In this document: positions 4,755 through 61,016 of the stretch, piece after piece | Layout: each line of letters begins with the position of its first letter | Position numbering within the stretch: the first letter of the stretch is position 1 | Source of the DNA: a bacterium | GTDB lineage: Bacteria; Patescibacteriota; Minisyncoccia; JAHIHE01; JAGLIN01 | Direction: 5' to 3' | Assembly (NCBI GenBank): GCA_030638825.1 | Contig: DAOWDU010000011.1 | Location: 5,675 to 69,674 of the forward strand | DNA length: 64,000 nucleotides | Notes under the pieces: model-generated | Seen by the model: the letters and a program-made list of their open reading frames with translations, nothing else | Database searches by the model: none | What the model was told of the DNA's origin: nothing | Position numbers and translations under genes: made by a program

Positions 4755-5609
4755 TTATCGTTTATTCAATCTCTTCAAAATCTCCAAATCTTCCTCAGCT
4801 TTCCCGCCTGGTGTTTCCAAAATAAAATCCAAATTCTTTAATCTTGGCTCATTAATAATCATCTCAAATCCTTCTATTCCAATTTTGCCTTTACCAATAT
4901 TTTCATGTCGATCAATATGCGAATTGAAATCAGATTTTGAATCGTTGCAGTGAATAAGTTTTAATCTTTCCAGTCCAATTATTTTATCAAAATCATCAAA
5001 GGTTTTCTGGACCGCTTTTTTATCGCGTAAATCATAACCTGAAGCGAAAGCGTGAGCGGTGTCAAAGCACACACCTAATTTAATATTTTTGTCATCCTGA
5101 GCTTGTCGAGGGACTTCCTTAATAAAATAGGCGATTTCTTCAAAACTGTCGCCCATAATATTTCCAGAGCCAGCGGTGATTTCCAGCAGTAGGGAACAGG
5201 CATGCCTGTTCCCTACTGCTACTAACCCTTTAATTAATTTCTCCCGCGCTTCTTTTTCGCCTAGTTCTTTCGCGCTTCCTAGGTGAGTAACAACCGCTTT
5301 TGCGCCGAGTAAATCCGCTGTTTCTAGTTCTTTCTTAATTGCTGAAATTGAACCGTAATAAATTCTATTATTCGCCGAAGCGAGATTTATATAATATGGC
5401 GTATGAATGTAATAATTTTCTAAATTATATTTCTGGCAATTTTTTTTAAAATTATTTATAGCGCTCTCTGTAATTTCTTTCGCTTTTCCTCCTTGCGGAG
5501 ATCTGGAAAACATCTGAAAACACTCACAGCCAATCTCGTGAGCTCTTTCGGGAGTTTTTTCAATTTCCCCCGCGATTGAAATGTGCGCGCCAAAGTTCAT
5601 TAGTGACAA
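4755..5609 (-). CDS. nfo: Endonuclease IV (AP endonuclease family 2)
   Basis: Conserved Nfo blocks are present (HAPY-like IHTPYYINLAS, TAGSG, CFDTAHAFASGYD, LIHCNDS). The gene also contains two in-frame repeat insertions, described in the findings. Confidence 0.85.
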   Translation of the reverse strand: MSLMNFGAHISIAGEIEKTPERAHEIGCECFQMFSRSPQGGKAKEITESAINNFKKNCQKYNLENYYIHTPYYINLASANNRIYYGSISAIKKELETADLLGAKAVVTHLGSAKELGEKEAREKLIKGLVAVGNRHACSLLLEITAGSGNIMGDSFEEIAYFIKEVPRQAQDDKNIKLGVCFDTAHAFASGYDLRDKKAVQKTFDDFDKIIGLERLKLIHCNDSKSDFNSHIDRHENIGKGKIGIEGFEMIINEPRLKNLDFILETPGGKAEEDLEILKRLNKR

Positions 5610-11562: not shown

Positions 11563-13659
<2,097 letters not shown>

Positions 13660-13700
13660 CTATCATAGCCTCTTTTCTACGGCCGTGAGAAAGAGGCTAT
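13660..13700 (-). terminator. GC-rich hairpin (catagcctcttttctacggccgtgagaaagaggctatg). An identical stem sequence is re-used at 14293-14333.
   Basis: Stem-loop followed by T-rich sequence on the minus strand, immediately after the stop of the 13703-14233 gene. It is a near-identical direct repeat of the hairpin at 14293-14333. Confidence 0.55.
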
Positions 13701-13702
13701 GG

Positions 13703-14233
13703 TTATATTTCTATTTCTTCTATTAAAAATAATTTTATATAAGAGTCAACGGAATACTTTCTTAAGATGAGTTCAGTTTCTTTTTGGACGCTATAGGGAC
13801 AAATCCAGATACTTTGCTGAAGCATTTTATATTCTAAGAGACGAAGTTTTTCTCGCAACAAATCTCGCAGGTGTCTTTTTTCTTCGGGAATGTCAAAAAT
13901 TATCATCTGCCATTTCCCGTCTGGTCTTTTTTGTTTATTTTTTATTTTAAGTTTTGCTTTTAAAACTTTTTCAGCTCCTTTTTTTGTTAGAATAATTCCT
14001 TCATTTTGCTCCAGATTTTTAATCTTAATATAACCATTCTTTTTCAGACGATAAATTAATTGTCTAAATTGTCCCTTTGTCTGTTTTCTTTTATATTGAT
14101 CTTTCAATTCACGGAGAGATGGATAGCAATATTCTTTCATTTTTCTATACGAAAAAATAGTAAAAGTTTTATCTAACTTTTCAGCGTGATTATAAACATC
14201 TAATAAAAATTTATCAGTAATTGGCAGTTTCAT
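13703..14233 (-). CDS. Winged-helix DNA-binding domain fused to a Cas2-like (VapD / PaaX C-terminal fold) domain. Orphan: no cas1 or CRISPR array nearby.
   Basis: The C-terminal block MIIFDIPEEKRHLRDLLREKLRLLEYKMLQQSIWICPY matches the Cas2 pattern (YDI..R.R..L...G.R.Q.SVFEC). The N-terminus has a wHTH pattern. Confidence 0.5.
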   Translation of the reverse strand: MKLPITDKFLLDVYNHAEKLDKTFTIFSYRKMKEYCYPSLRELKDQYKRKQTKGQFRQLIYRLKKNGYIKIKNLEQNEGIILTKKGAEKVLKAKLKIKNKQKRPDGKWQMIIFDIPEEKRHLRDLLREKLRLLEYKMLQQSIWICPYSVQKETELILRKYSVDSYIKLFLIEEIEI

Positions 14234-14292
14234 GGAGCTTATTGAGTTTTAATATTTATCTAATTTTATTATACACTAATTCACGATATAGT

Positions 14293-14333
14293 CATAGCCT
14301 CTTTTCTACGGCCGTAGAAAAGAGGCTATGATT
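14293..14333 (-). terminator. GC-rich hairpin, second copy of the 13660-13700 hairpin, downstream of pilD
   Basis: catagcctcttttctacggccgtagaaaagaggctatg. Confidence 0.5.
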
Positions 14334-14398
14334 ATATTGCTACAGCTACATTTATCGTTCTGTACTATTCTGTATTTAGATGTGGTAAGTATGACAAT

Positions 14399-22164: not shown

Positions 22165-25100
22165 TTACAACAAGGACTTTATTTTTTCTTTCAGTTTTTT
22201 TATTTTTTTTTCGCTTTCCATAAATTTTTCTCTTTCTTTTTCAACAATTTCCCGCGGAGCATTGCCGACAAAATCATCATTGCCAAGTTTTGTTTTTATC
22301 TGGAAAATATATTTTTCTATATTTTCTATTTTTTTTTCTAAATTCTTTTTTTCTTTTTCTTTGTCAATTATTCCCTCTAAATAAATTTCAATATCGCCAA
22401 CAACTAAATAAACCGCGTCTTTGATTTTATCGTCCTTTTCTTTTATTTCTAATTTATCAATTCCAGTTCTGAGATTTTTGATTAAATGCGCTTGTGATTT
22501 GATAAATTCTTTTTTATTTCCAGCGTAAATTACAGCTTCAATTTTTTTACCTGGCTCAACCTTATATTCCGCGCGCGCGTTGCGAATGGCTTTAATAATA
22601 TTTTGAATTATTTCAAAATCGCGGGCTGTTGTGATTGTAGGGAACGGGCATGCCTGTTCCCTACAATCACGGTCAGCCCACTTTTCCACCATCAGTAAAT
22701 TTTCACTGTCTAAATTCTTCCAAATTTCTTCTGTCACAAACGGAATAAAAGGGTGAAATAAAATTAAAACTTGTTTTAAAATATAATTTAAAATCTCATT
22801 TTTATTTTTTTCAATTTTAGAAATTTCAATATACCAGTCAGCGAAATCGTTCCAGGTAAATTCTTTTATTTTTTCGCCAGCTTGCGAAAATTTATAATTA
22901 TTCAAATCATCTGTGACTTCTTTAGTTAAATTGTTTAGATTATTTAAGATCCATTTATCTGCTAATGTGGCATCAGAAGCTGGGCTTCCAATTGGAAGCC
23001 CAGCTTCTTTAGTATTATCAATATTCATAATAATATACCGTGAAACATTCCACAACTTATTCACAAAATTCCGATACCCTTCAACTTTTTCTTCATACAT
23101 CTTAATGTCATTTCCTGGACTGGATCCGATAATCATACTCAATCTCAAAGCGTCCGTTCCGTATTTCTCGATCATCTCGATCGGATCAATCCCATTTCCA
23201 AGAGACTTGCTCATTTTCTTTCCCTGCTTATCTCGTACCATTCCATGCAAATAAACATTTTCAAACGGGACTTCGCCAAGCGTATAAGTCGTCATCAAAA
23301 TCATTCTTGCCACCCAAAAAAACAAAATATCATAACCCGTTTCCATCACGCTTGTTGGATGAAACTTTTTCAAATCTGGACTATTCGCAACCCAATCTTC
23401 AAAAGTTTTATATTTCTCGTGATCCTGATTTAATAAAGTTGAAAATGTCCAAAGACCTGAGGAGAACCAGGTGTCTAGAGTGTCGGTGTCCTGTGTCCAG
23501 TTTTTTCCTTCTGGTGGATTAGTCCCAATATATATTTCTTGATTTTTATATTTCTTACCTTTCGGTATCATAGTATATACTATGGAACTATTATCAAATT
23601 TATTATTTAATTCATATTTCCATCCCGCTTGCCACTCTTTTGTTTTTCTCCAATCTTCATTAATCGCTTGCTCCCAAGTTCTATTTTTTAAAATTACATC
23701 TAGCGCTAACTGTGGAGCTTTGTGCGCAACAATAGCAATTTTTTTACCTTGATATTTATCTATTAAATCATTAAGAAAATCCCTGATTCTTTTTTCAACA
23801 TCTTTATAGCTCTCGCCCTTTGGAAATGGTTTGTCTATTACATTTTTTTCTATCACCAAAATTTCAGACGCACCAGCTTGTGTTAAATCTCCATAATCAC
23901 ACTCACGCAATCTTTCATCCTGAATGATTTTTACACCTCTATCACTAAACGTTAGGCTTGCAGAATCAACTGCTCGTTTCAAATCTGAACAAAATACAAT
24001 ATCAAATTTCTCATTTTCAATTGTTTTCTTTAAATCTTTTGACTGCTGAATTCCTAATTTTGATAATTTTACATCATAATGACCAGACGCTTTATTCTTC
24101 TCATTATCAATCGTCGTCCCATGAACAAAATAAGTAATATCAATTCCTGATTCCTGATTCCTGATTCCTGATTCATTTTTATACCAAACCGGAATCCGAT
24201 GCCCAAACCATAACTGACGGGAAATACACCAATCATGCAAATTTTCCATCCAATTATGATATGTTTTTTCAAATCTTTCAGGAATGATTTCAATTTTCTT
24301 GTCATTTTTTTCATCAGCTTTATTCACCACTTCCAAAGCAATTTCCTTCAAGGACTTATTTTGAAAATATTTATTTCCTCCAATTGTAATTTTCTTGTCA
24401 ACGGCGACAAACCATTGTTTTGATGGCAAAGGTTCAATCGGGGTATCACAGCGGTAGCAAATGCTTAAACTTTGATCTACTTCTTCAACTTTTTCAATTA
24501 AATTATTTTTCTCAAAATACTGGACTATTTTTTCTCGCGCTTCTAAAACTGTTAGTCCTTCATAATCTTTTCCTGCGTTCTCATTCATCTTCCCGTCTTC
24601 GCCAATAATTTTTATTTTCTCCAAATCATTTTTCTCTGCCATTTCCCAGTCAGTCATACTGTGCGCGGGAGTTACTCCTAATGCCCCAGTTCCAAACTTT
24701 ATTTCAACTTCTCTATCTGAAATAATTTTAATTTTATGTTTGCCATTTCCTAAATTTATTTCAAAAACTTTGCCAATATACTTTTTATATCTCTCATCTT
24801 TTGGATTAACAGCAACCGCTGTATCGCCTAACTTTGTTTCTGGTCTTGTTGTCGCGATTGTGATTGGAAAGTCTTTGTCATATTTAAAATAATACAGTTT
24901 CCCTTTTTGCTCTTCGTGTTCAACTTCATCATCCGCTAAAGTTGATTCGCATCTTGGGCACCAGTTGACAATTCTGTCTCCTCTATATATTAATTTATCA
25001 TTGAACATTTTTGTAAATACTTCCCTCACTGCGCGTGATAATCCATCATCAAGTGTGTATCTTTCCCTTGACCAATCGCAAGAAGAACCCATTTTTCTGG

Positions 25101-25512
25101 TTTGATTTTTAATTGTACTTTTTGAATTTTCTACATATTCATTTACTCGCTCCAGAAATTTCTCTCTGCCTAAATCATATTTCGTCTTCCCCTCTTTTGC
25201 GATTATCTTTTCTACTTTCGTCTGTGTCGCGATTGAAGCGTGGTCTGTTCCAGGAAGCCATAAAGTATTTTTTCCTTTCATTCTATTATACCTAATCATC
25301 AAATCCTGATAAGCAAGCATTGAAGCATGTCCTAAATGCAAAACTCCCGTCGCATTCGGCGGCGGCATTGAGATTGAAAAGTTTTGTAGGGAACAGGTAT
25401 GCCTGTTCCCTACAAAACTATTCGGATTAAAAAAACCAGACTTTTCCCAAGTCTTATAAATTTTATCTTCCACCTCTTGAGGATCATATGCTTTTGGAAT
25501 TTCTTTTTTCAT
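22165..25512 (-). CDS. valS: Valyl-tRNA synthetase with inserted domains
   Basis: HIGH (PNATGVLHLGHA), KMSKS and the anticodon-binding/coiled-coil C-terminus. 1115 aa, longer than typical ValRS because of insertions. Confidence 0.95.
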   Translation of the reverse strand: MKKEIPKAYDPQEVEDKIYKTWEKSGFFNPNSFVGNRHTCSLQNFSISMPPPNATGVLHLGHASMLAYQDLMIRYNRMKGKNTLWLPGTDHASIATQTKVEKIIAKEGKTKYDLGREKFLERVNEYVENSKSTIKNQTRKMGSSCDWSRERYTLDDGLSRAVREVFTKMFNDKLIYRGDRIVNWCPRCESTLADDEVEHEEQKGKLYYFKYDKDFPITIATTRPETKLGDTAVAVNPKDERYKKYIGKVFEINLGNGKHKIKIISDREVEIKFGTGALGVTPAHSMTDWEMAEKNDLEKIKIIGEDGKMNENAGKDYEGLTVLEAREKIVQYFEKNNLIEKVEEVDQSLSICYRCDTPIEPLPSKQWFVAVDKKITIGGNKYFQNKSLKEIALEVVNKADEKNDKKIEIIPERFEKTYHNWMENLHDWCISRQLWFGHRIPVWYKNESGIRNQESGIDITYFVHGTTIDNEKNKASGHYDVKLSKLGIQQSKDLKKTIENEKFDIVFCSDLKRAVDSASLTFSDRGVKIIQDERLRECDYGDLTQAGASEILVIEKNVIDKPFPKGESYKDVEKRIRDFLNDLIDKYQGKKIAIVAHKAPQLALDVILKNRTWEQAINEDWRKTKEWQAGWKYELNNKFDNSSIVYTMIPKGKKYKNQEIYIGTNPPEGKNWTQDTDTLDTWFSSGLWTFSTLLNQDHEKYKTFEDWVANSPDLKKFHPTSVMETGYDILFFWVARMILMTTYTLGEVPFENVYLHGMVRDKQGKKMSKSLGNGIDPIEMIEKYGTDALRLSMIIGSSPGNDIKMYEEKVEGYRNFVNKLWNVSRYIIMNIDNTKEAGLPIGSPASDATLADKWILNNLNNLTKEVTDDLNNYKFSQAGEKIKEFTWNDFADWYIEISKIEKNKNEILNYILKQVLILFHPFIPFVTEEIWKNLDSENLLMVEKWADRDCREQACPFPTITTARDFEIIQNIIKAIRNARAEYKVEPGKKIEAVIYAGNKKEFIKSQAHLIKNLRTGIDKLEIKEKDDKIKDAVYLVVGDIEIYLEGIIDKEKEKKNLEKKIENIEKYIFQIKTKLGNDDFVGNAPREIVEKEREKFMESEKKIKKLKEKIKSLL
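22631..22670. repeat. Family-A palindrome (gtgattGTAGGGAACgGGCATGCCTGTTCCCTACaatcac), in frame in valS
   Basis: 40-bp palindrome with one central mismatch. It encodes ...ACPFPTITT... in valS. Confidence 0.8.
22975..23008. repeat. Family-B palindrome (aGAAGCTGGGCTTCCAATTGGAAGCCCAGCTTCt), in frame in valS
   Basis: Perfect 34-bp palindrome. It encodes EAGLPIGSPAS. Confidence 0.8.
24143..24175. repeat. Heptamer tandem repeat (attcctg) x4 inside valS
   Basis: Encodes ESGIRNQESGI at the start of the ValRS insertion. Confidence 0.8.
25380..25419. repeat. Family-A palindrome (agttttGTAGGGAACAGGtATGCCTGTTCCCTACaaaact), in frame near the valS N-terminus
   Basis: It encodes the VGNRHTCSLQ insertion between the conserved N-terminal segment and the HIGH region. 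Confidence 0.8.
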
Positions 25513-47195: not shown

Positions 47196-47339
47196 AATTC
47201 ATTTCTTACGCCGCTTAAAACAAATAAATAATAAGCCGAATTTTGTTTTCTGATATAAAATCAAAATGATAATCATCTATCTAGCCATACTATTGCTAGT
47301 ATGATCAAGCGAGCTACTTTTTTCCCAACTAACTTACAA

Positions 47340-47693
47340 CTTACAACTTACAATTTTAATATTGTTATTTGTTATGAGTTATAGGTTATAAGTTAGTCAG
47401 GATTTGCTCTTGCACCAGGCAGGGTTTACCATCATTTGCTGTCACCAGCAAGGAAAGAGCGTAGATTTAAATTTATAAAAATTCAAATCATCGCCCAACT
47501 TTTCACCTTTTATCATGTATAACATGATTAGTATAGTCTCTGTGGCACTTTCCCTATCCTAAAAAAATTAGAACGGTTGCCGTTAGCAACTGCCTGCTTC
47601 CAGGTTATTTTAAAGTAATCTGGGGTGTTCGGACTTTCCTCTCCTATTCTTTAAAAGAACAAAAGCGATTATCTAATTTACCATTTTAAGCTC
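47340..47693 (-). ncRNA. rnpB: RNase P RNA (bacterial type), ends approximate
   Basis: The non-coding region is GC-richer than its surroundings. The minus strand carries GAGGAAAGUCCGAAC (P4 5' strand), GGGAAAGUGCCACAGAGA, AAGGUGAAAAG, GGUAAACCCUGCCUGG and GCAAGAGCAAAU in canonical order. An extended -10 TGTATAAT lies at 47700-47707 (minus strand). Confidence 0.6.
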
Positions 47694-47751
47694 TTTCATT
47701 ATACAAAAAACAATCACTTTGTCAATCTAAATTTTGTGCTATAATACTCTT

Positions 47752-49809
47752 ATGGAAAATATTTTAGAAAGTTTAAATAAGAGACAGCAAAAGGCCGTTA
47801 CCGCGACGGACGGGCCGGTTTTGATAATTGCGGGACCGGGATCCGGGAAGACGAAAGTTTTAACGCATCGCATCGCTTATATTATAAAAAATAAGGCGGT
47901 CAGTCCGACTAATATTCTTGCGGTAACTTTTACGAATAAAGCTGCCCAGGAAATGAAAAGCAGGGTAGGCGTGTTGCTTGAGAAGATGGTTTATGCAAAT
48001 AATTCTAACTTTTATAAAAAATCATTTGACGATGACGCCCCTCACCCCAACCCTCTCCCGCGGGGAGAGGGAGTTTCCAGTTTCCAGTTTCCTGTCATTG
48101 GCACTTTTCATAGCATTTGTGTGAGAATTTTGCGGCAGGAGGCGGAGTTGATCGGCTATAAAAAAGGATTTACTATTTATGATGACAGTGACCAGCAAGC
48201 AATAATTAAAAAGATTATGAATAATTTACAGATAAGTCCAGAGCAGTTTAATCCGCGGGCGGTCTTGTCTCATATTTCTAACGCTAAAAATGAATTGAAA
48301 AGTCCGAAAGATTTTAGTGATATCGCCGACGGTTATTTTCAGGAACAGGTTAGTATTGTTTATAATGCGTATCAGAAAAAATTAAAAGATAATAATTCTT
48401 TGGATTTTGACGATTTAATTATGCAGACAATTTTATTGTTTTTAGACAAGCCGGAGATTTTGCGAAAATACCAAGATAAATTCCGTTATGTGATGGTTGA
48501 TGAATATCAAGACACGAATTACGCGCAATACAAACTGGTTGATTTATTAAGCAAAACTCATCGGAATTTATGCGTTGTTGGCGATGACTGGCAGAGTATT
48601 TACAAATGGCGCGGCGCGGACATTAGAAATATTTTGGATTTTGAGAAAAATTATTCTGAAGCGGAAGTTATTTTGCTAGAACAAAATTATCGATCAACGC
48701 AAACAATTTTAGACGCCTCATATCAAATAATTTCCCGCAATGTCAATCGCAAGGAGAAAAAGCTTTGGAGTGAAAAAGAGGCGGGCGAGCCGATCGTTAT
48801 TTACGAAGCGGCTGACGAAAAAGGAGAAGCAGAATTTGTTATTTCGGAAATTGCCAGATTAACAAATAATAAAATAAATTTAAAAGACATTGCGATTTTA
48901 TATCGCACAAACGCTCAATCAAGATCAATAGAGGAAGCATTTTTGCAATATGGCGTTCCCTATAAAATCGTCGGCGGTATAAAATTTTATCTGCGAAAAG
49001 AGGTAAAAGACATTATCGCCTATCTGCGGCTTATTCAAAATCCAAATGACACAGCGAGTCTGGAAAGAATTATCAATATTCCTAAAAGAGATATTGGACA
49101 GGTGACTTTCAGAAAGATAATGGCAGAAATGGAAAAGAGTGGAAACGATGTTATTGAAGCATTGTTTAATTGTAATTGTGAAAATATTCCAGAAGGCAAG
49201 ATTAAGAAAATAAAAAGCTTTGCGGAAATTATTCTAAAGTGCCAAGATAAAATTGACAAAATTAAAATTTCTGAATTGCTTACTTATCTTTTGAAAAGCA
49301 TTAATTATGAAAAGCATATCAAAGATGGAACTGATGATGGAGAAAAAAAATGGGAAAATGTGAAAGAGCTTTTTAGCGCTGTGGAAAAATACGATAATCT
49401 GCCGGCGAAAGAAAATTTGAAAATATTTTTAGAAGAAATCGCGCTGGCGACGGATTTAGATAAGATAGACGATTCGCAGGATGCCGTAACTTTAATGACG
49501 CTCCATTCTGCTAAGGGCCTTGAGTTCAGCGCTGTTTTTATAATTGGGATGGAAGAAGGATTGCTTCCTCATTCCAGAAGCATTCAGGATCCTTCTGAGA
49601 TGGAAGAGGAAAGAAGATTGTGTTATGTCGGAATTACAAGAGCGAAAAAGAAAGCGTATCTTATCTTCGCGAGAACCAGAAAAATTTACGGCTCAACGCA
49701 AGCAAATATGCCCTCCCGTTTCATTTCCGACATCCCAGAAGAGTTAGCGGAATTTAAGAGGCAGGAGTATAGTTATTTGGGAGAGGATGAAGTTGTTGAA
49801 GTTGATTAA
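47752..49809 (+). CDS. pcrA: ATP-dependent DNA helicase PcrA/UvrD. The start is reassigned to the ATG at 47752.
   Basis: LNKRQQKAV...GPVLIIAGPGSGKTKVLTHRIAYII (motif I), motifs II-VI, and the 2B domain. The ORF-track start at 47734 overlaps the TGCTATAAT -10 box. Confidence 0.9.
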   Translation: MENILESLNKRQQKAVTATDGPVLIIAGPGSGKTKVLTHRIAYIIKNKAVSPTNILAVTFTNKAAQEMKSRVGVLLEKMVYANNSNFYKKSFDDDAPHPNPLPRGEGVSSFQFPVIGTFHSICVRILRQEAELIGYKKGFTIYDDSDQQAIIKKIMNNLQISPEQFNPRAVLSHISNAKNELKSPKDFSDIADGYFQEQVSIVYNAYQKKLKDNNSLDFDDLIMQTILLFLDKPEILRKYQDKFRYVMVDEYQDTNYAQYKLVDLLSKTHRNLCVVGDDWQSIYKWRGADIRNILDFEKNYSEAEVILLEQNYRSTQTILDASYQIISRNVNRKEKKLWSEKEAGEPIVIYEAADEKGEAEFVISEIARLTNNKINLKDIAILYRTNAQSRSIEEAFLQYGVPYKIVGGIKFYLRKEVKDIIAYLRLIQNPNDTASLERIINIPKRDIGQVTFRKIMAEMEKSGNDVIEALFNCNCENIPEGKIKKIKSFAEIILKCQDKIDKIKISELLTYLLKSINYEKHIKDGTDDGEKKWENVKELFSAVEKYDNLPAKENLKIFLEEIALATDLDKIDDSQDAVTLMTLHSAKGLEFSAVFIIGMEEGLLPHSRSIQDPSEMEEERRLCYVGITRAKKKAYLIFARTRKIYGSTQANMPSRFISDIPEELAEFKRQEYSYLGEDEVVEVD
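48037..48092. repeat. In-frame palindromic element (gcccctcaccccaaCCCTCTCCCGCGGGGAGAGGGag) plus a 3x heptamer repeat (agtttcc), inside pcrA
   Basis: Perfect 21-bp palindrome at 48051-48071. The region encodes PHPNPLPRGEGVSSFQFPV, inserted between helicase motifs. Confidence 0.75.
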
Positions 49810-49827
49810 ACTGTCATTAATACCATT

Positions 49828-50688
49828 ATGTTTTCTAAAACCGAAATTAAAAAATTACTTGAAGAAAAAGATTTGAAAGTTCTGAAAAGGTTAGGACAGA
49901 ATTTTTTGATTGATGAAAAAGTTTTAAATGAAATAATTAGAGCGTCGGAACTTAATAAAGATGATTTTATTTTGGAAATTGGTCCAGGTTTGGGAACGCT
50001 TACCGATGAACTTGTTAAAAAATGTGGAACAGTTGTGGCGATAGAGAAAGATAAAAAAATGGCAGAGTTGATTTTTAAAGAAGCTGAGCTTCCTATAGGA
50101 AGCTCAGCTTCTCGCGCTTTTTTAAAAATCATCAACGATGATATTTTAAAAATAAATTTAAACAAGCTTATTGAAGAATATTCTAAAAACAAAAAATATA
50201 AATTGATTTCTAATATTCCATATTACATCACTTCGCCTGTGATAAAATTATTTTTAGAAAATAGCATCCAGCCGGAGCTGATTGTTTTGCTTGTTCAAAA
50301 AGAAGTAGCGGAAAGGATCTGCGCGAAGCCGGGAAAATTAAGTATTTTAGCTTTGAGCGTCCAAATATACGGCGAGCCGGAGATTGTTAGCTATGTTGAT
50401 AAAGCCGCGTTTTATCCCGAGCCAAAAGTTGATTCGGCGATTTTAAAAATCAAAAACATTAAAAAAGAATTCTCTGAAGAGTATTACAAAAAACTTTTCA
50501 AAATTATAAAAATCGGGTTTTCGTCTAAAAGAAAAAAGCTGGCAAATAATTTATCAGCTGGATTGTATCTTACCAAAAAAGAAAGTGAAGATATTTTGCA
50601 ACAATCAAACATAAATCTAAACACTCGCGCGCAGGAATTGAGTTTGGAGGAGTGGGATAAATTAGTAAAATTGACGCTGTTGAAATAA
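49828..50688 (+). CDS. rsmA: 16S rRNA (adenine1518/1519-N6)-dimethyltransferase
   Basis: LGQNFLIDEKVLNEII and LEIGPGLGTLT SAM-binding motifs. Confidence 0.9.
   Translation: MFSKTEIKKLLEEKDLKVLKRLGQNFLIDEKVLNEIIRASELNKDDFILEIGPGLGTLTDELVKKCGTVVAIEKDKKMAELIFKEAELPIGSSASRAFLKIINDDILKINLNKLIEEYSKNKKYKLISNIPYYITSPVIKLFLENSIQPELIVLLVQKEVAERICAKPGKLSILALSVQIYGEPEIVSYVDKAAFYPEPKVDSAILKIKNIKKEFSEEYYKKLFKIIKIGFSSKRKKLANNLSAGLYLTKKESEDILQQSNINLNTRAQELSLEEWDKLVKLTLLK
50079..50112. repeat. Family-B palindrome (aGAAGCTGAGCTTCCTATAGGAAGCTCAGCTTCt), in frame in rsmA
   Basis: Perfect 34-bp palindrome. It encodes EAELPIGSSAS. It differs from the valS copy by compensated changes (G to A paired with C to T, AATT versus TATA centre). 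Confidence 0.8.
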
Positions 50689-59780: not shown

Positions 59781-59857
59781 TGGTGGGCCATCCTGGACTC
59801 GAACCAGGGACTTCGACCTTATAAGGATCGCGCTCTAACCAACTGAGCTAATGGCCC
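59781..59857 (-). tRNA. tRNA-Ile with anticodon UAU (reads AUA), CCA encoded
   Basis: The reverse complement gggccattagctcagttggttagagcgcgatccttataaggtcgaagtccctggttcgagtccaggatggcccacca has anticodon stem cgatc/ggtcg, loop ctTATaa, A37 and the GGTTCGAGTCC T-arm. Confidence 0.8.
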
Positions 59858-60011: not shown

Positions 60012-61016
60012 TTACTTTTTACTGTGAAACTTCTTGTGAATATTTTTCAAATGCTTGTCTGTGATGTGCGTGTAAATTTGAGTTGTCGTGATACTGGAAT
60101 GGCCGAGCATTGACTGGACGCTTCTAATGTCAGCGCCGTTCATTAGTAAATCTGTCGCAAAACTGTGCCGCAAAGTATGGGGCGTCACTTTTTTTACGAT
60201 GCCCGCTTTGACGGCATATTTTTCTACTATTCTTTGAATAGTTCTTACTGTCAGTCGTAAAGATTGATTTGCTTTTGCTTTATTTTTCTTACTGTTTTTT
60301 TTGCTTTTATTTTCATTATTGCAATAGCCACCGCCTTTTTTTCTAAAATTTATAAATAACGCAGGGTCAATATCTTTCCTTTTTTTAAGATAATCTATTA
60401 TGGCATCTTTTGCTGAGTCGGAAATAAAAACAAGACGGATTTTTCCTCCCTTTCCCCTTATAGAAAACTCGCCGCTTTTGAGATTTATGTTTTCCCTGTT
60501 TAAATTAGCAAGTTCCGAGACGCGAAGTCCAGTGGAAAATAGCAATTCTAAAATCGCTTTATCGCGCAGGCGATGGAAATATTGAAGGCGACATTCCGGA
60601 ATGTCGCCTTCAATATTTCCATCGCCTGTTTTCACAGATTCTAATAATCTTTTTATCTCATCCGCTTCTAAAAATTCTACTTCTCGCTCTTGCGTTTTTC
60701 CAAGCTCCACTTTTTCACTTGCCAATGTTTCAATATCTTGTTTTGCTAAATATTTCAAAAAACCGCGCAAGGCGATTATATAATAATCCTGTGTTGCTTT
60801 TTTTAAATTTTTTTCTTTACGATCTTTATATCTATTGAGATATAACCTGAATTTCTTTACCAATTCACCTGTAATATCCTCTGGATTTCTGATCATTGCC
60901 CAATCTAAAAACCGATTTAAATAATGATCGTAGTTTCTAATTGTCAGCTGTGATCTATTTTTCTCAATCTCCAAATATTCAAGAAATTCAATTTTTAATT
61001 CTTTTATTTTTTCCAT
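60012..61016 (-). CDS. Tyrosine recombinase (XerC/XerD / phage-integrase family) with a Lys/Asn-rich insertion
   Basis: The C-terminal catalytic block HTLRHSFATDLLMNGADIRSVQSMLGHSSITTTQIYTH (R...HxxR...Y). XerD-like N-terminal core-binding domain. Confidence 0.8.
   Translation of the reverse strand: MEKIKELKIEFLEYLEIEKNRSQLTIRNYDHYLNRFLDWAMIRNPEDITGELVKKFRLYLNRYKDRKEKNLKKATQDYYIIALRGFLKYLAKQDIETLASEKVELGKTQEREVEFLEADEIKRLLESVKTGDGNIEGDIPECRLQYFHRLRDKAILELLFSTGLRVSELANLNRENINLKSGEFSIRGKGGKIRLVFISDSAKDAIIDYLKKRKDIDPALFINFRKKGGGYCNNENKSKKNSKKNKAKANQSLRLTVRTIQRIVEKYAVKAGIVKKVTPHTLRHSFATDLLMNGADIRSVQSMLGHSSITTTQIYTHITDKHLKNIHKKFHSKK

Follow-up and report, generated by a model that had tools for sequence, protein, structure and literature searches.

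A GTAG-tagged palindromic repeat in frame in nfo and valS of a patescibacterial contig, and its association with RAYT-type transposase genes

How does one short palindrome come to lie, in frame, at three places in two conserved housekeeping genes of a single bacterial contig? The question is posed by a 64,000-nt stretch of Patescibacteria DNA (assembly GCA_030638825.1, contig DAOWDU010000011.1, positions 5,675 to 69,674 of the forward strand; hereafter the window, whose own numbering is used throughout), in which nfo, the gene for endonuclease IV (Endo IV), holds one copy and valS, the gene for valyl-tRNA synthetase (ValRS), holds two. In this manuscript, we use the term family A to refer to the 28-mer GTAGGGAACAGGCATGCCTGTTCCCTAC and its copies. 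The element is a repeated hairpin that occupies genes in frame, is missing from an orthologous valS site in relatives, has flanks that covary, and recurs base for base in other phyla. It is also physically associated with genes of the RAYT type (REP-associated tyrosine transposase, REP standing for repetitive extragenic palindrome), and the hairpins inside and beside those genes are identical. We consider it probable that family A is a REP with a GTAG tag, that a cognate RAYT mobilizes it in trans, and that within genes it persists only where the reading frame and the protein fold tolerate it.

Family A in nfo and valS

The 28-mer matches the window at 5189-5216 (no mismatches), 22637-22664 (one mismatch) and 25386-25413 (one mismatch), and has no match in 100 dinucleotide-preserving shuffles of the sequence. 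All three copies are intragenic, in minus-strand open reading frames (ORFs), and introduce no stops. The nfo gene (4755-5600/5609, minus strand; AP_endonuc_2) matches Endo IV sequences of the PDB to E = 4e-47, and an identical protein, P0122, starts MNFGAH. Its exact core is the center of a perfect 36-nt palindrome (5185-5220) that encodes A-V-G-N-R-H-A-C-S-L-L. The valS gene (22165-25512, minus strand; 1115 aa, with an inserted His_Phos_1 domain) matches T. thermophilus ValRS with E = 2e-178. In its C-terminal part, a 40-nt palindrome with one central mismatch (22631-22670) is read in another frame, as D-C-R-E-Q-A-C-P-F-P-T-I-T. Near the 5' end of valS, the palindrome at 25380-25419 (40 nt) is perfect but for a central T/G, has complementary flanks of 6-10 nt, and reaches 25376-25423 (48 nt) if one further mismatch is allowed. 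Here the encoded peptide, S-F-V-G-N-R-H-T-C-S-L-Q-N, is just upstream of the MPPPNATG/H-L-G-H segment, in which the class I HIGH signature is located. We regard the three in-frame copies as confirmed. The original prediction of three copies of a 28-nt core, in frame within conserved housekeeping genes, therefore stands, as does its observation that each palindrome extends into the flanks, although the palindromes are slightly wider (36, 40 and 40-48 nt) than it gave.

The three copies all end in GTAG...CTAC, and past the core their complementary flanks amount to at least 4, 6 and 6 nt, respectively, with a joint chance of about 4^-16. The palindromes are G+C-rich (40-56%, versus 29-41% in the window), which agrees with the earlier remark on their contrast with the AT-rich host. 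As single-stranded DNA (ssDNA) they fold with -17 to -22 kcal/mol (z = -7.5 to -11). Scans with Rfam, at gathering thresholds, and for tRNAs give no match at the three sites. Two reading frames are in use, VGNRH(A/T)CSL for nfo and for the N-terminal valS copy and CREQACPFPT for the C-terminal one, while the third frame of the core holds a TAG. Because two frames are used and the core is exact, the conserved entity is the DNA rather than the peptide.

In an AlphaFold model of Nfo (mean predicted local distance difference test score, pLDDT, of 89), the element takes up the two final residues of helix 115-129, then loop 130-135, and then the start of strand 136-140. At its end the strand has the invariant Glu140, the counterpart in the alignment of the conserved LLE glutamate of PDB Endo IV sequences. 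By the general architecture of TIM barrels, this alpha-to-beta loop would be on the face away from the active site. The ValRS protein has a larger insertion as well, a His_Phos_1 (PF00300) domain at approximately aa 455-605 that follows the sequence GHRIPVWY. Orthologues have a PhzF domain (PF02567), a PF06821 hydrolase domain, or nothing at that insertion, and in P0020-P0022 and P0025 the inserted domain likewise comes after the GHR(I/V)PV(W/Y)Y motif. The domain-junction peptide of the window protein, NESGIRNQESGI, looks repeat-derived.

By the names of its closest ValRS and Nfo homologues, the host is a patescibacterium of the Parcubacteria/Pacebacteria type. The DNA of orthologues was compared for valS from six relatives and for nfo from three. 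The valS N-terminal site is empty in all six relatives (GAT AAT TTr nnn TTr nCn GAA GAy GCn GAA AAn TTT TCA); the window has 28 nt in place of about 19 nt, and 14 aa in place of 11 (net +3 aa). The net gain at the valS C-terminal site is approximately 6-7 aa, and the nfo site is 2 aa shorter than that of the palindrome-free P0180 and 1 aa longer than that of T. maritima Endo IV. The claim that each copy adds about 10 residues is thus not borne out (the changes being +3, about +6 and -2). The element overwrites resident codons, and is not a plain addition of ten.

The other two sites are occupied in various ways. At the valS C-terminal site, P0016 has GCAGGGAACGAAAATTTTCGTTCCCTAC, in which the outer arms are those of family A and the center differs yet is symmetric; P0007 has GTAGAGACGAGGCAGTGCCTCATCTCTAC; P0003 has GAGACGCGATGAATCGCGTCTCTAC and a decayed copy; and P0010, P0008 and P0002 lack a palindrome and fall short by about 6 aa. 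At the nfo site, P0124 (83% protein and 84% DNA identity; from a JGI metagenome) has an exact family-A core at the same position, P0129 has the sister family GTAGGGACAGGTCGCGACCTGTCCCTAC, and P0180, with no palindrome, has a protein 2 aa longer than the window Nfo. An alignment of 25 Nfo sequences contains at least six different palindrome-type peptides at this position. Apart from the exact core of P0124, the orthologous sites are empty or hold other palindromes, and do not carry the same residues as conserved protein sequence free of a palindrome. The empty nfo site of P0180 reads TTAC followed by TTCTGGAA, which hints at an IS608-like TTAC target; the valS N-terminal site is without TTAC, and we make no claim on this point.

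The flanks covary with one another. At the valS N-terminal site, the left flank is now GAATAGTTTT and was ancestrally GGATAATTTA, and all three differences are toward complementarity with the right flank, AAAACTTTTC. At the nfo site, the 4-nt left and right flanks are AGCA and TGCT in the window, AAAA and TTTT in P0124, and AGAA and TTCT in P0129, so that they vary among the three orthologues but stay complementary, and an 18-bp stem is kept. Variation of the right flank is confined to synonymous Leu codons of the conserved LLLE strand, and is tracked by the left flank, whose codon, in a variable loop, is for Ala, Lys or Glu. Because the left flank follows synonymous changes of the right flank with pairing kept, the flank extension is real but secondary, with local sequence outside the inserted unit being converted or selected to pair.

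Distribution and association with RAYT-type genes

A scan of one genome per species with the 24-mer AGGGAACNGGNATNCCNGTTCCCT found at least 118 contigs, with 126 copies among the matches listed; the counts for family A in this section refer to those matches. The 24-mer is identical in 114 of the 126 copies. The metagenome-assembled genomes (MAGs) that contain them are labelled as more than 15 phyla, and include Omnitrophota, Patescibacteria (Roizman-, Morani- and Saccharibacteria), Planctomycetes, Nitrospirota, Spirochaetota, Desulfobacteraceae, Ignavibacteria, Zixibacteria, Marinimicrobia, Chlorobi and Clostridia, among others. The loci range from 30 to 60% in G+C, and several MAGs have at least seven family-A-bearing contigs each. 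The 28-mer has no match in viral contigs, which leaves a phage vector without support.

GTAG and CTAC mark the exact ends of the conserved unit: most of the 126 copies are of the GTAG...CTAC form, with GCAG or ATAG as variants. Beyond the 28-mer, complementarity of the flanks is about 25-30% per position, which is the chance level, with a few long exceptions. The inserted unit is thus the 28-mer, and not the 34-40 bp hairpin of the original prediction. The flanks are biased in composition, with a pyrimidine at -1 in 79% and at -2 in 76%. Only 24 of the 126 copies are deep inside long ORFs (by construction, none in the TAG frame), and the remainder are intergenic or near gene ends, which points to depletion from coding sequence, as expected for a REP under selection. 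The deep copies, such as those in long ORFs of loci L007, L053 and L101, are read as VGNRHACSL or xREQACLFPx. Tandem family-A half-sites also occur (L007:500-550, L087:4148-4230 and L116:1055-1115), one example being CGCGCCCGTTCCCTA repeated three times after a full copy inside a RAYT gene; such arrays point to slippage at the hairpin or to repeated rounds of partial copying there.

All ORFs of the 118 loci were clustered to find recurrent neighbors. The commonest neighbor family, present at 12 of the 118 loci, comprises proteins of about 170-200 aa with MPNHVHG (the HUH motif) and a C-terminal IReYIxNNPxKW that supplies the Tyr. It scores above the cutoff of the Pfam family Y1_Tnp (PF01797; 34.7 and 26 versus 23 bits), and JGI names its members 'REP element-mobilizing transposase RayT'. 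In our alignment of RAYT-type proteins (A2), the HUH motif (PNHVHG) and R-x-Y...NP...W are invariant. At nine of the 12 loci, the family-A core is inside the RAYT-type gene itself, directly after the HUH motif. At L021, one further copy directly adjoins the gene on its upstream side and another follows about 120 nt downstream, and copies flank the gene at L020 as well. Among RAYTs with the exact 28/28 core, protein identity is only 48-59%, and the DNA beside the core is unconserved. The nucleotide sequence of the core itself must therefore be constrained, and recent transfer of the whole gene does not account for its identity.

Other RAYTs have other peptides at the same position (VGNAYMRSL, VGNADLRSL, VGNGLKPFPT, VGARHASPL, CRGTACRAPT, VETQHAASL and more), and where the DNA was examined these loops are also GTAG...CTAC palindromes, such as GTAGGGAACGCAGATCTGCGTTCCCTAC in L128. 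A member of the Saccharimonadales (L130) has a degenerate internal copy, with related copies 1.2 kb upstream and 2.2 kb downstream. A sample independent of the hairpin was formed from 80 metagenomic RAYT loci chosen by two protein motifs, 75 of which have a recognizable HUH motif. Within 150 nt after that motif, a stem of at least 11 bp is found in 57 of the 75 genes, versus one of 75 for the 150 nt before it, and 43 of the 57 post-HUH hairpins have ends of the GTAG...CTAC type. Of 40 eligible loci, 19 contain the 12-nt arm again at another position (chance about 0.04 per locus), and in L135, L158 and L180 the recurrent arms directly flank the RAYT gene, which is the classical REPtron layout. 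This recurrence indicates that the hairpin inside a RAYT gene is probably the cognate REP of that RAYT; on the same sequence grounds, family A would be the REP of the VGNRHACSL subfamily. The valS and nfo loci of relatives contain no RAYT by tblastn with three RAYT-like proteins.

Probable mobilization by a RAYT, and other explanations

If family A is mobilized by a RAYT, its perfect 28-bp palindrome, with GTAG at the 5' end of each strand, would fold as ssDNA into a hairpin of about 12 bp, probably at replication forks, by analogy with characterized Y1 transposases. A cognate RAYT, encoded elsewhere in the genome and with a family-A copy of its own in the loop after the HUH motif, would recognize the foot of the hairpin with its GTAG, cut beside it, and move the hairpin into new single-stranded targets. 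The element would be selfish DNA, and selection would purge copies that cause a frameshift, are read in the TAG frame, or upset the protein fold. Gene-borne copies would then persist only when the length change is a multiple of three, the frame is free of stops, and the loop is tolerant. Two of the three frames are open in either orientation, because the palindrome reads alike on both strands. Nucleotide replacement and the re-use of one loop by different families point either to insertion accompanied by deletion or templated repair, or to existing hairpins being preferred targets of exchange. After arrival, the flanks would become mutually complementary and the stem would lengthen. Correction of quasi-palindromes by template switching is known from the general mutagenesis literature, and the flank covariation is probably best explained by intrastrand template switching across the perfect hairpin, with protein-level selection as a filter and with the direction of conversion set by whichever flank is under the stronger protein constraint. 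What we infer from these data is catalysis by a RAYT, mobilization in trans within this genome, and stem extension through template switching.

We put forward a broader proposal more tentatively. It is possible that one REP family is base-identical across more than 15 phyla because a master copy is embedded in the post-HUH loop of its own RAYT, and that a gene-internal cognate hairpin is general in a large RAYT clade and links the transposase to its substrate. The copies in the candidate phyla radiation (CPR) might then settle in loops of essential proteins, with turnover at hot spots and with growth through templated symmetrization of their flanks.

Several observations weigh against mobilization by a RAYT. 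Transposition of the IS200/IS605 Y1 type is precise, while here 19 nt are replaced by 28 nt, and the replaced nucleotides call for an extra step or another mechanism, for example templated repair from another copy. Classical REPs are imperfect, with an unpaired GTAG tail and a non-palindromic loop, and are usually species-specific and mostly 3' of genes, whereas family A is perfectly symmetric through its center and identical across phyla. Its exact conservation and stem covariation would also fit a structure selected by the host. The best NCBIfam match of the neighbor family, NF047646 (REP_Tyr_transpos), is below cutoff (58.5 and 56.5 versus 80 bits). Finally, the 64-kb window has no RAYT-like gene, tblastn of three RAYT-like proteins having matched just the element, so that trans-mobilization in this organism is unproven.

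The palindrome might alternatively be a structural or regulatory element selected by the host, that is, a hairpin or a site for a dimeric protein that affects translation, mRNA stability, replication or the nucleoid. Such selection would fit the base-for-base conservation of the 28-mer across phyla, the dyad symmetry through its center, and the compensatory covariation that maintains the 18-bp nfo stem in three orthologues, and there is precedent in classical REPs co-opted for gyrase/IHF binding or mRNA stabilization, according to PMC3733652. We nevertheless consider it unlikely, since copies are found both outside genes and in genes that are unrelated, at variable loops and in two frames; orthologous sites do without a palindrome, or have one of another family, with no apparent harm; the strongest genomic association is with a gene of a transposase family; and Rfam has no match at these sites.

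A similarly low probability attaches to spread by recombination or templated repair between copies (or from the RAYT-internal copy), with no site-specific transposition by a RAYT. The replacement, rather than mere interruption, of resident nucleotides speaks for it, as do the occupation of the same sites by different families in orthologues and the short similarities between flanks and ancestral sequence. It leaves unexplained the GTAG/CTAC ends, the YY bias of the flanks, and the systematic identity of RAYT-internal and dispersed hairpins, and a homology of 28 bp is very short for RecA-type recombination.

The view that the VGNRHACSL peptide is a functional module, such as a Cys/His metal site, with the DNA palindrome incidental, is very improbable. 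The peptide does have His and Cys and recurs in many proteins, but the same DNA is read in a second frame (CREQAC-type) in valS and elsewhere, most copies are outside long ORFs, and the nucleotides are invariant, synonymous positions included. An assembly or sequencing artefact can be dismissed as next to incredible, for although perfect palindromes can arise from multiple displacement amplification or fold-back chimeras, the same 28-mer is found at three sites with the frame preserved and in at least 118 contigs from many studies, it is at the same nfo site in independent NCBI, ENA and JGI assemblies (with Nfo proteins P0122 and P0123 identical or 99% identical and having the same peptide), and the window ValRS has an identical protein, P0001.

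Two further candidates were rejected. A transcription-factor operator (LexA/Cheo box, CIRCE, parS or dif) disagrees in spacing, in sequence, and in the multicopy intragenic occurrence of family A; and an origin of the flank symmetry from P-nucleotides or hairpin opening disagrees with the position of the complementary flanks on opposite sides of the core.

Known repeat families and other repeats of the window

GTAG-tagged REPs, RAYT (TnpA_REP) transposases and REPtrons are established (Nunvar 2010, PMC2817692; Bertels & Rainey 2011, PMC3116915; Di Nocera 2013, PMC3733652). The last of these papers describes GTAG and CGTC REPs in frame inside genes of several species; intragenic REPs are given there as most numerous in Opitutus terrae and Rickettsia conorii, often in DNA-repair genes, and some GTAG families as occurring in distant taxa. 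It also classes the Rickettsia palindromic elements (RPEs) RPE-4/6 as short CGTC-type REPs with no linked transposase, and RPE-1 as a longer palindromic insertion. A related family may be among the consensus sequences in Figure 1 of PMC3733652, and the strings GTAGGG, RHAC and RHAS are absent from its supplements. The analysis of Bertels 2017 covered just flanking extragenic 16-mers. Literature searches found no match to the 18-mer center of family A, nothing specific on palindromes in CPR bacteria, and, for REP/RAYT systems, no report of a cognate hairpin inside the RAYT coding sequence, of base-for-base identity of one REP family across many phyla, or of flank covariation in orthologous intragenic copies.

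Family A shares several features with GTAG-tagged REPs. Its 28-bp core (36-40 bp with flanks) is within the range of about 20-40 bp for their stem-loops, and has the terminal GTAG; in other genomes it is multicopy and mostly outside ORFs, while the three copies of the 64-kb window are all intragenic; some copies are in frame in genes, including DNA-repair genes; at loci outside the window there is a HUH/Tyr Y1 transposase gene that may be flanked by the same repeat (L021, L135 and L158); and related subfamilies differ by compensatory stem changes. It differs in being perfectly symmetric, with a palindromic CATG center and with a GTAG on each strand that is base-paired, where classical REPs have it as a free tail; in having the cognate repeat within the RAYT coding sequence at a fixed loop (57/75 loci); in its RAYT clade, which is below the NCBIfam equivalog cutoff; and in its identity across many phyla, whereas systems of RAYTs and REPINs (hairpins formed by REP doublets) are described as lineage-specific and vertically inherited. 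The window copies are single symmetric palindromes, with no REPIN-type doublets, although tandem half-sites occasionally occur elsewhere (L007, L087 and L116).

Family A is less close to other systems. The original prediction had likened it to RPEs, and the likeness holds for the toleration of palindromes in frame in conserved genes of a reduced genome, at seemingly tolerant positions such as the modelled Nfo loop. RPEs, to judge by their descriptions, are set apart as Rickettsia-specific, while family A, 28 bp long and linked to RAYTs, occurs across phyla and is tagged with GTAG rather than CGTC, so that the closest family is a GTAG-tagged REP with its RAYT. IS200/IS605 elements and palindrome-associated transposable elements (PATEs) share the Y1 HUH superfamily, recognition of ssDNA hairpins, and the lack of a target-site duplication (PMC6006769). 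They have distinct left and right subterminal hairpins around a cargo and insert precisely 3' of a tetra- or pentanucleotide, whereas family A is one symmetric hairpin with no internal segment, and its arrival replaces target nucleotides. The mobile GC clusters of yeast mitochondria are also short G+C-rich palindromes of an A+T-rich genome and at times lie in frame within a protein gene, but they belong to a eukaryotic organelle, are unrelated in sequence, and have no known HUH transposase. The expectation that such elements were undescribed in this lineage holds insofar as no description from CPR/Patescibacteria was found, but not for the kind of element. Because in-frame intragenic GTAG REPs were described in 2013 in other phyla (PMC3733652), the window element is a new family, in a new host lineage, of a known kind of REP; it is RPE-like in action, but is not an RPE.

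Other repeats are present in the window. Family B (AGAAGCTGrGCTTCC...GGAAGCyCAGCTTCT) is in frame at 22975-23008 in valS and at 50079-50112 in rsmA (RrnaAD; 49828-50688), where it encodes EAGLPIGSPAS and EAELPIGSSAS, respectively. At the valS site of family B, orthologue P0008 has AGAAACTAAGCTTCCAATAGGAAACTTAGTTTCT, with three compensatory double changes, and P0007 has a relative of family A, GTAGTGGACAGGCATACCTGTCCACTAC. Palindromes at 232-287 (56 nt), 575-646 (72 nt) and 918-948 (31 nt) are in frame in one minus-strand gene that runs past the left edge of the window and encodes a beta-helix-like secreted protein; a relative of the 72-nt palindrome (center GGTACC) lies in frame within valS of P0016 (L122:2548-2597). 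A perfect 62-nt palindrome (60567-60628), encoding TGDGNIEGDIPECRLQYFHRL, is in frame in a XerC/D-type tyrosine recombinase gene (60012-61016; Phage_integrase, PF00589). Two copies of a palindrome of about 52 nt, CATAGCCTCTTTTCTACGGCCGTAGAAAAGAGGCTATG (GTAG at the center), are at 13655-13710 and 14286-14337, on either side of a gene for a 176-aa PaaX_M/Cas2-like protein (13703-14233), and could be bidirectional terminators or a cassette boundary. The UvrD/PcrA-like helicase (47734-49809) contains the peptide APHPNPLPRGEGVSS, which resembles the repeat-derived TPNPSQEGN and PPSPLLQRG of valS in P0016, P0013 and P0017; this resemblance suggests another intragenic repeat family. An RNase P RNA match (47216-47684) is 469 nt long versus 367 nt for the model, and may carry insertions. 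A tRNA-Ile with anticodon TAT is at 59781-59857.

For the bacteria concerned, the practical consequence is that foreign peptides made by repeats (VGNRHACSL, CREQACLFPT and others) inflate the apparent divergence and loop length of essential CPR proteins, and so need to be recognized and masked in annotation. For the repeat family, a REP that is identical across phyla challenges the view of REP/RAYT systems as lineage-specific and strictly vertical. The covarying flanks provide natural data on which the templated correction of palindromes in vivo can be tested, and a cognate hairpin within the RAYT gene suggests how a transposase and its substrate stay coupled, or how the gene is autoregulated.

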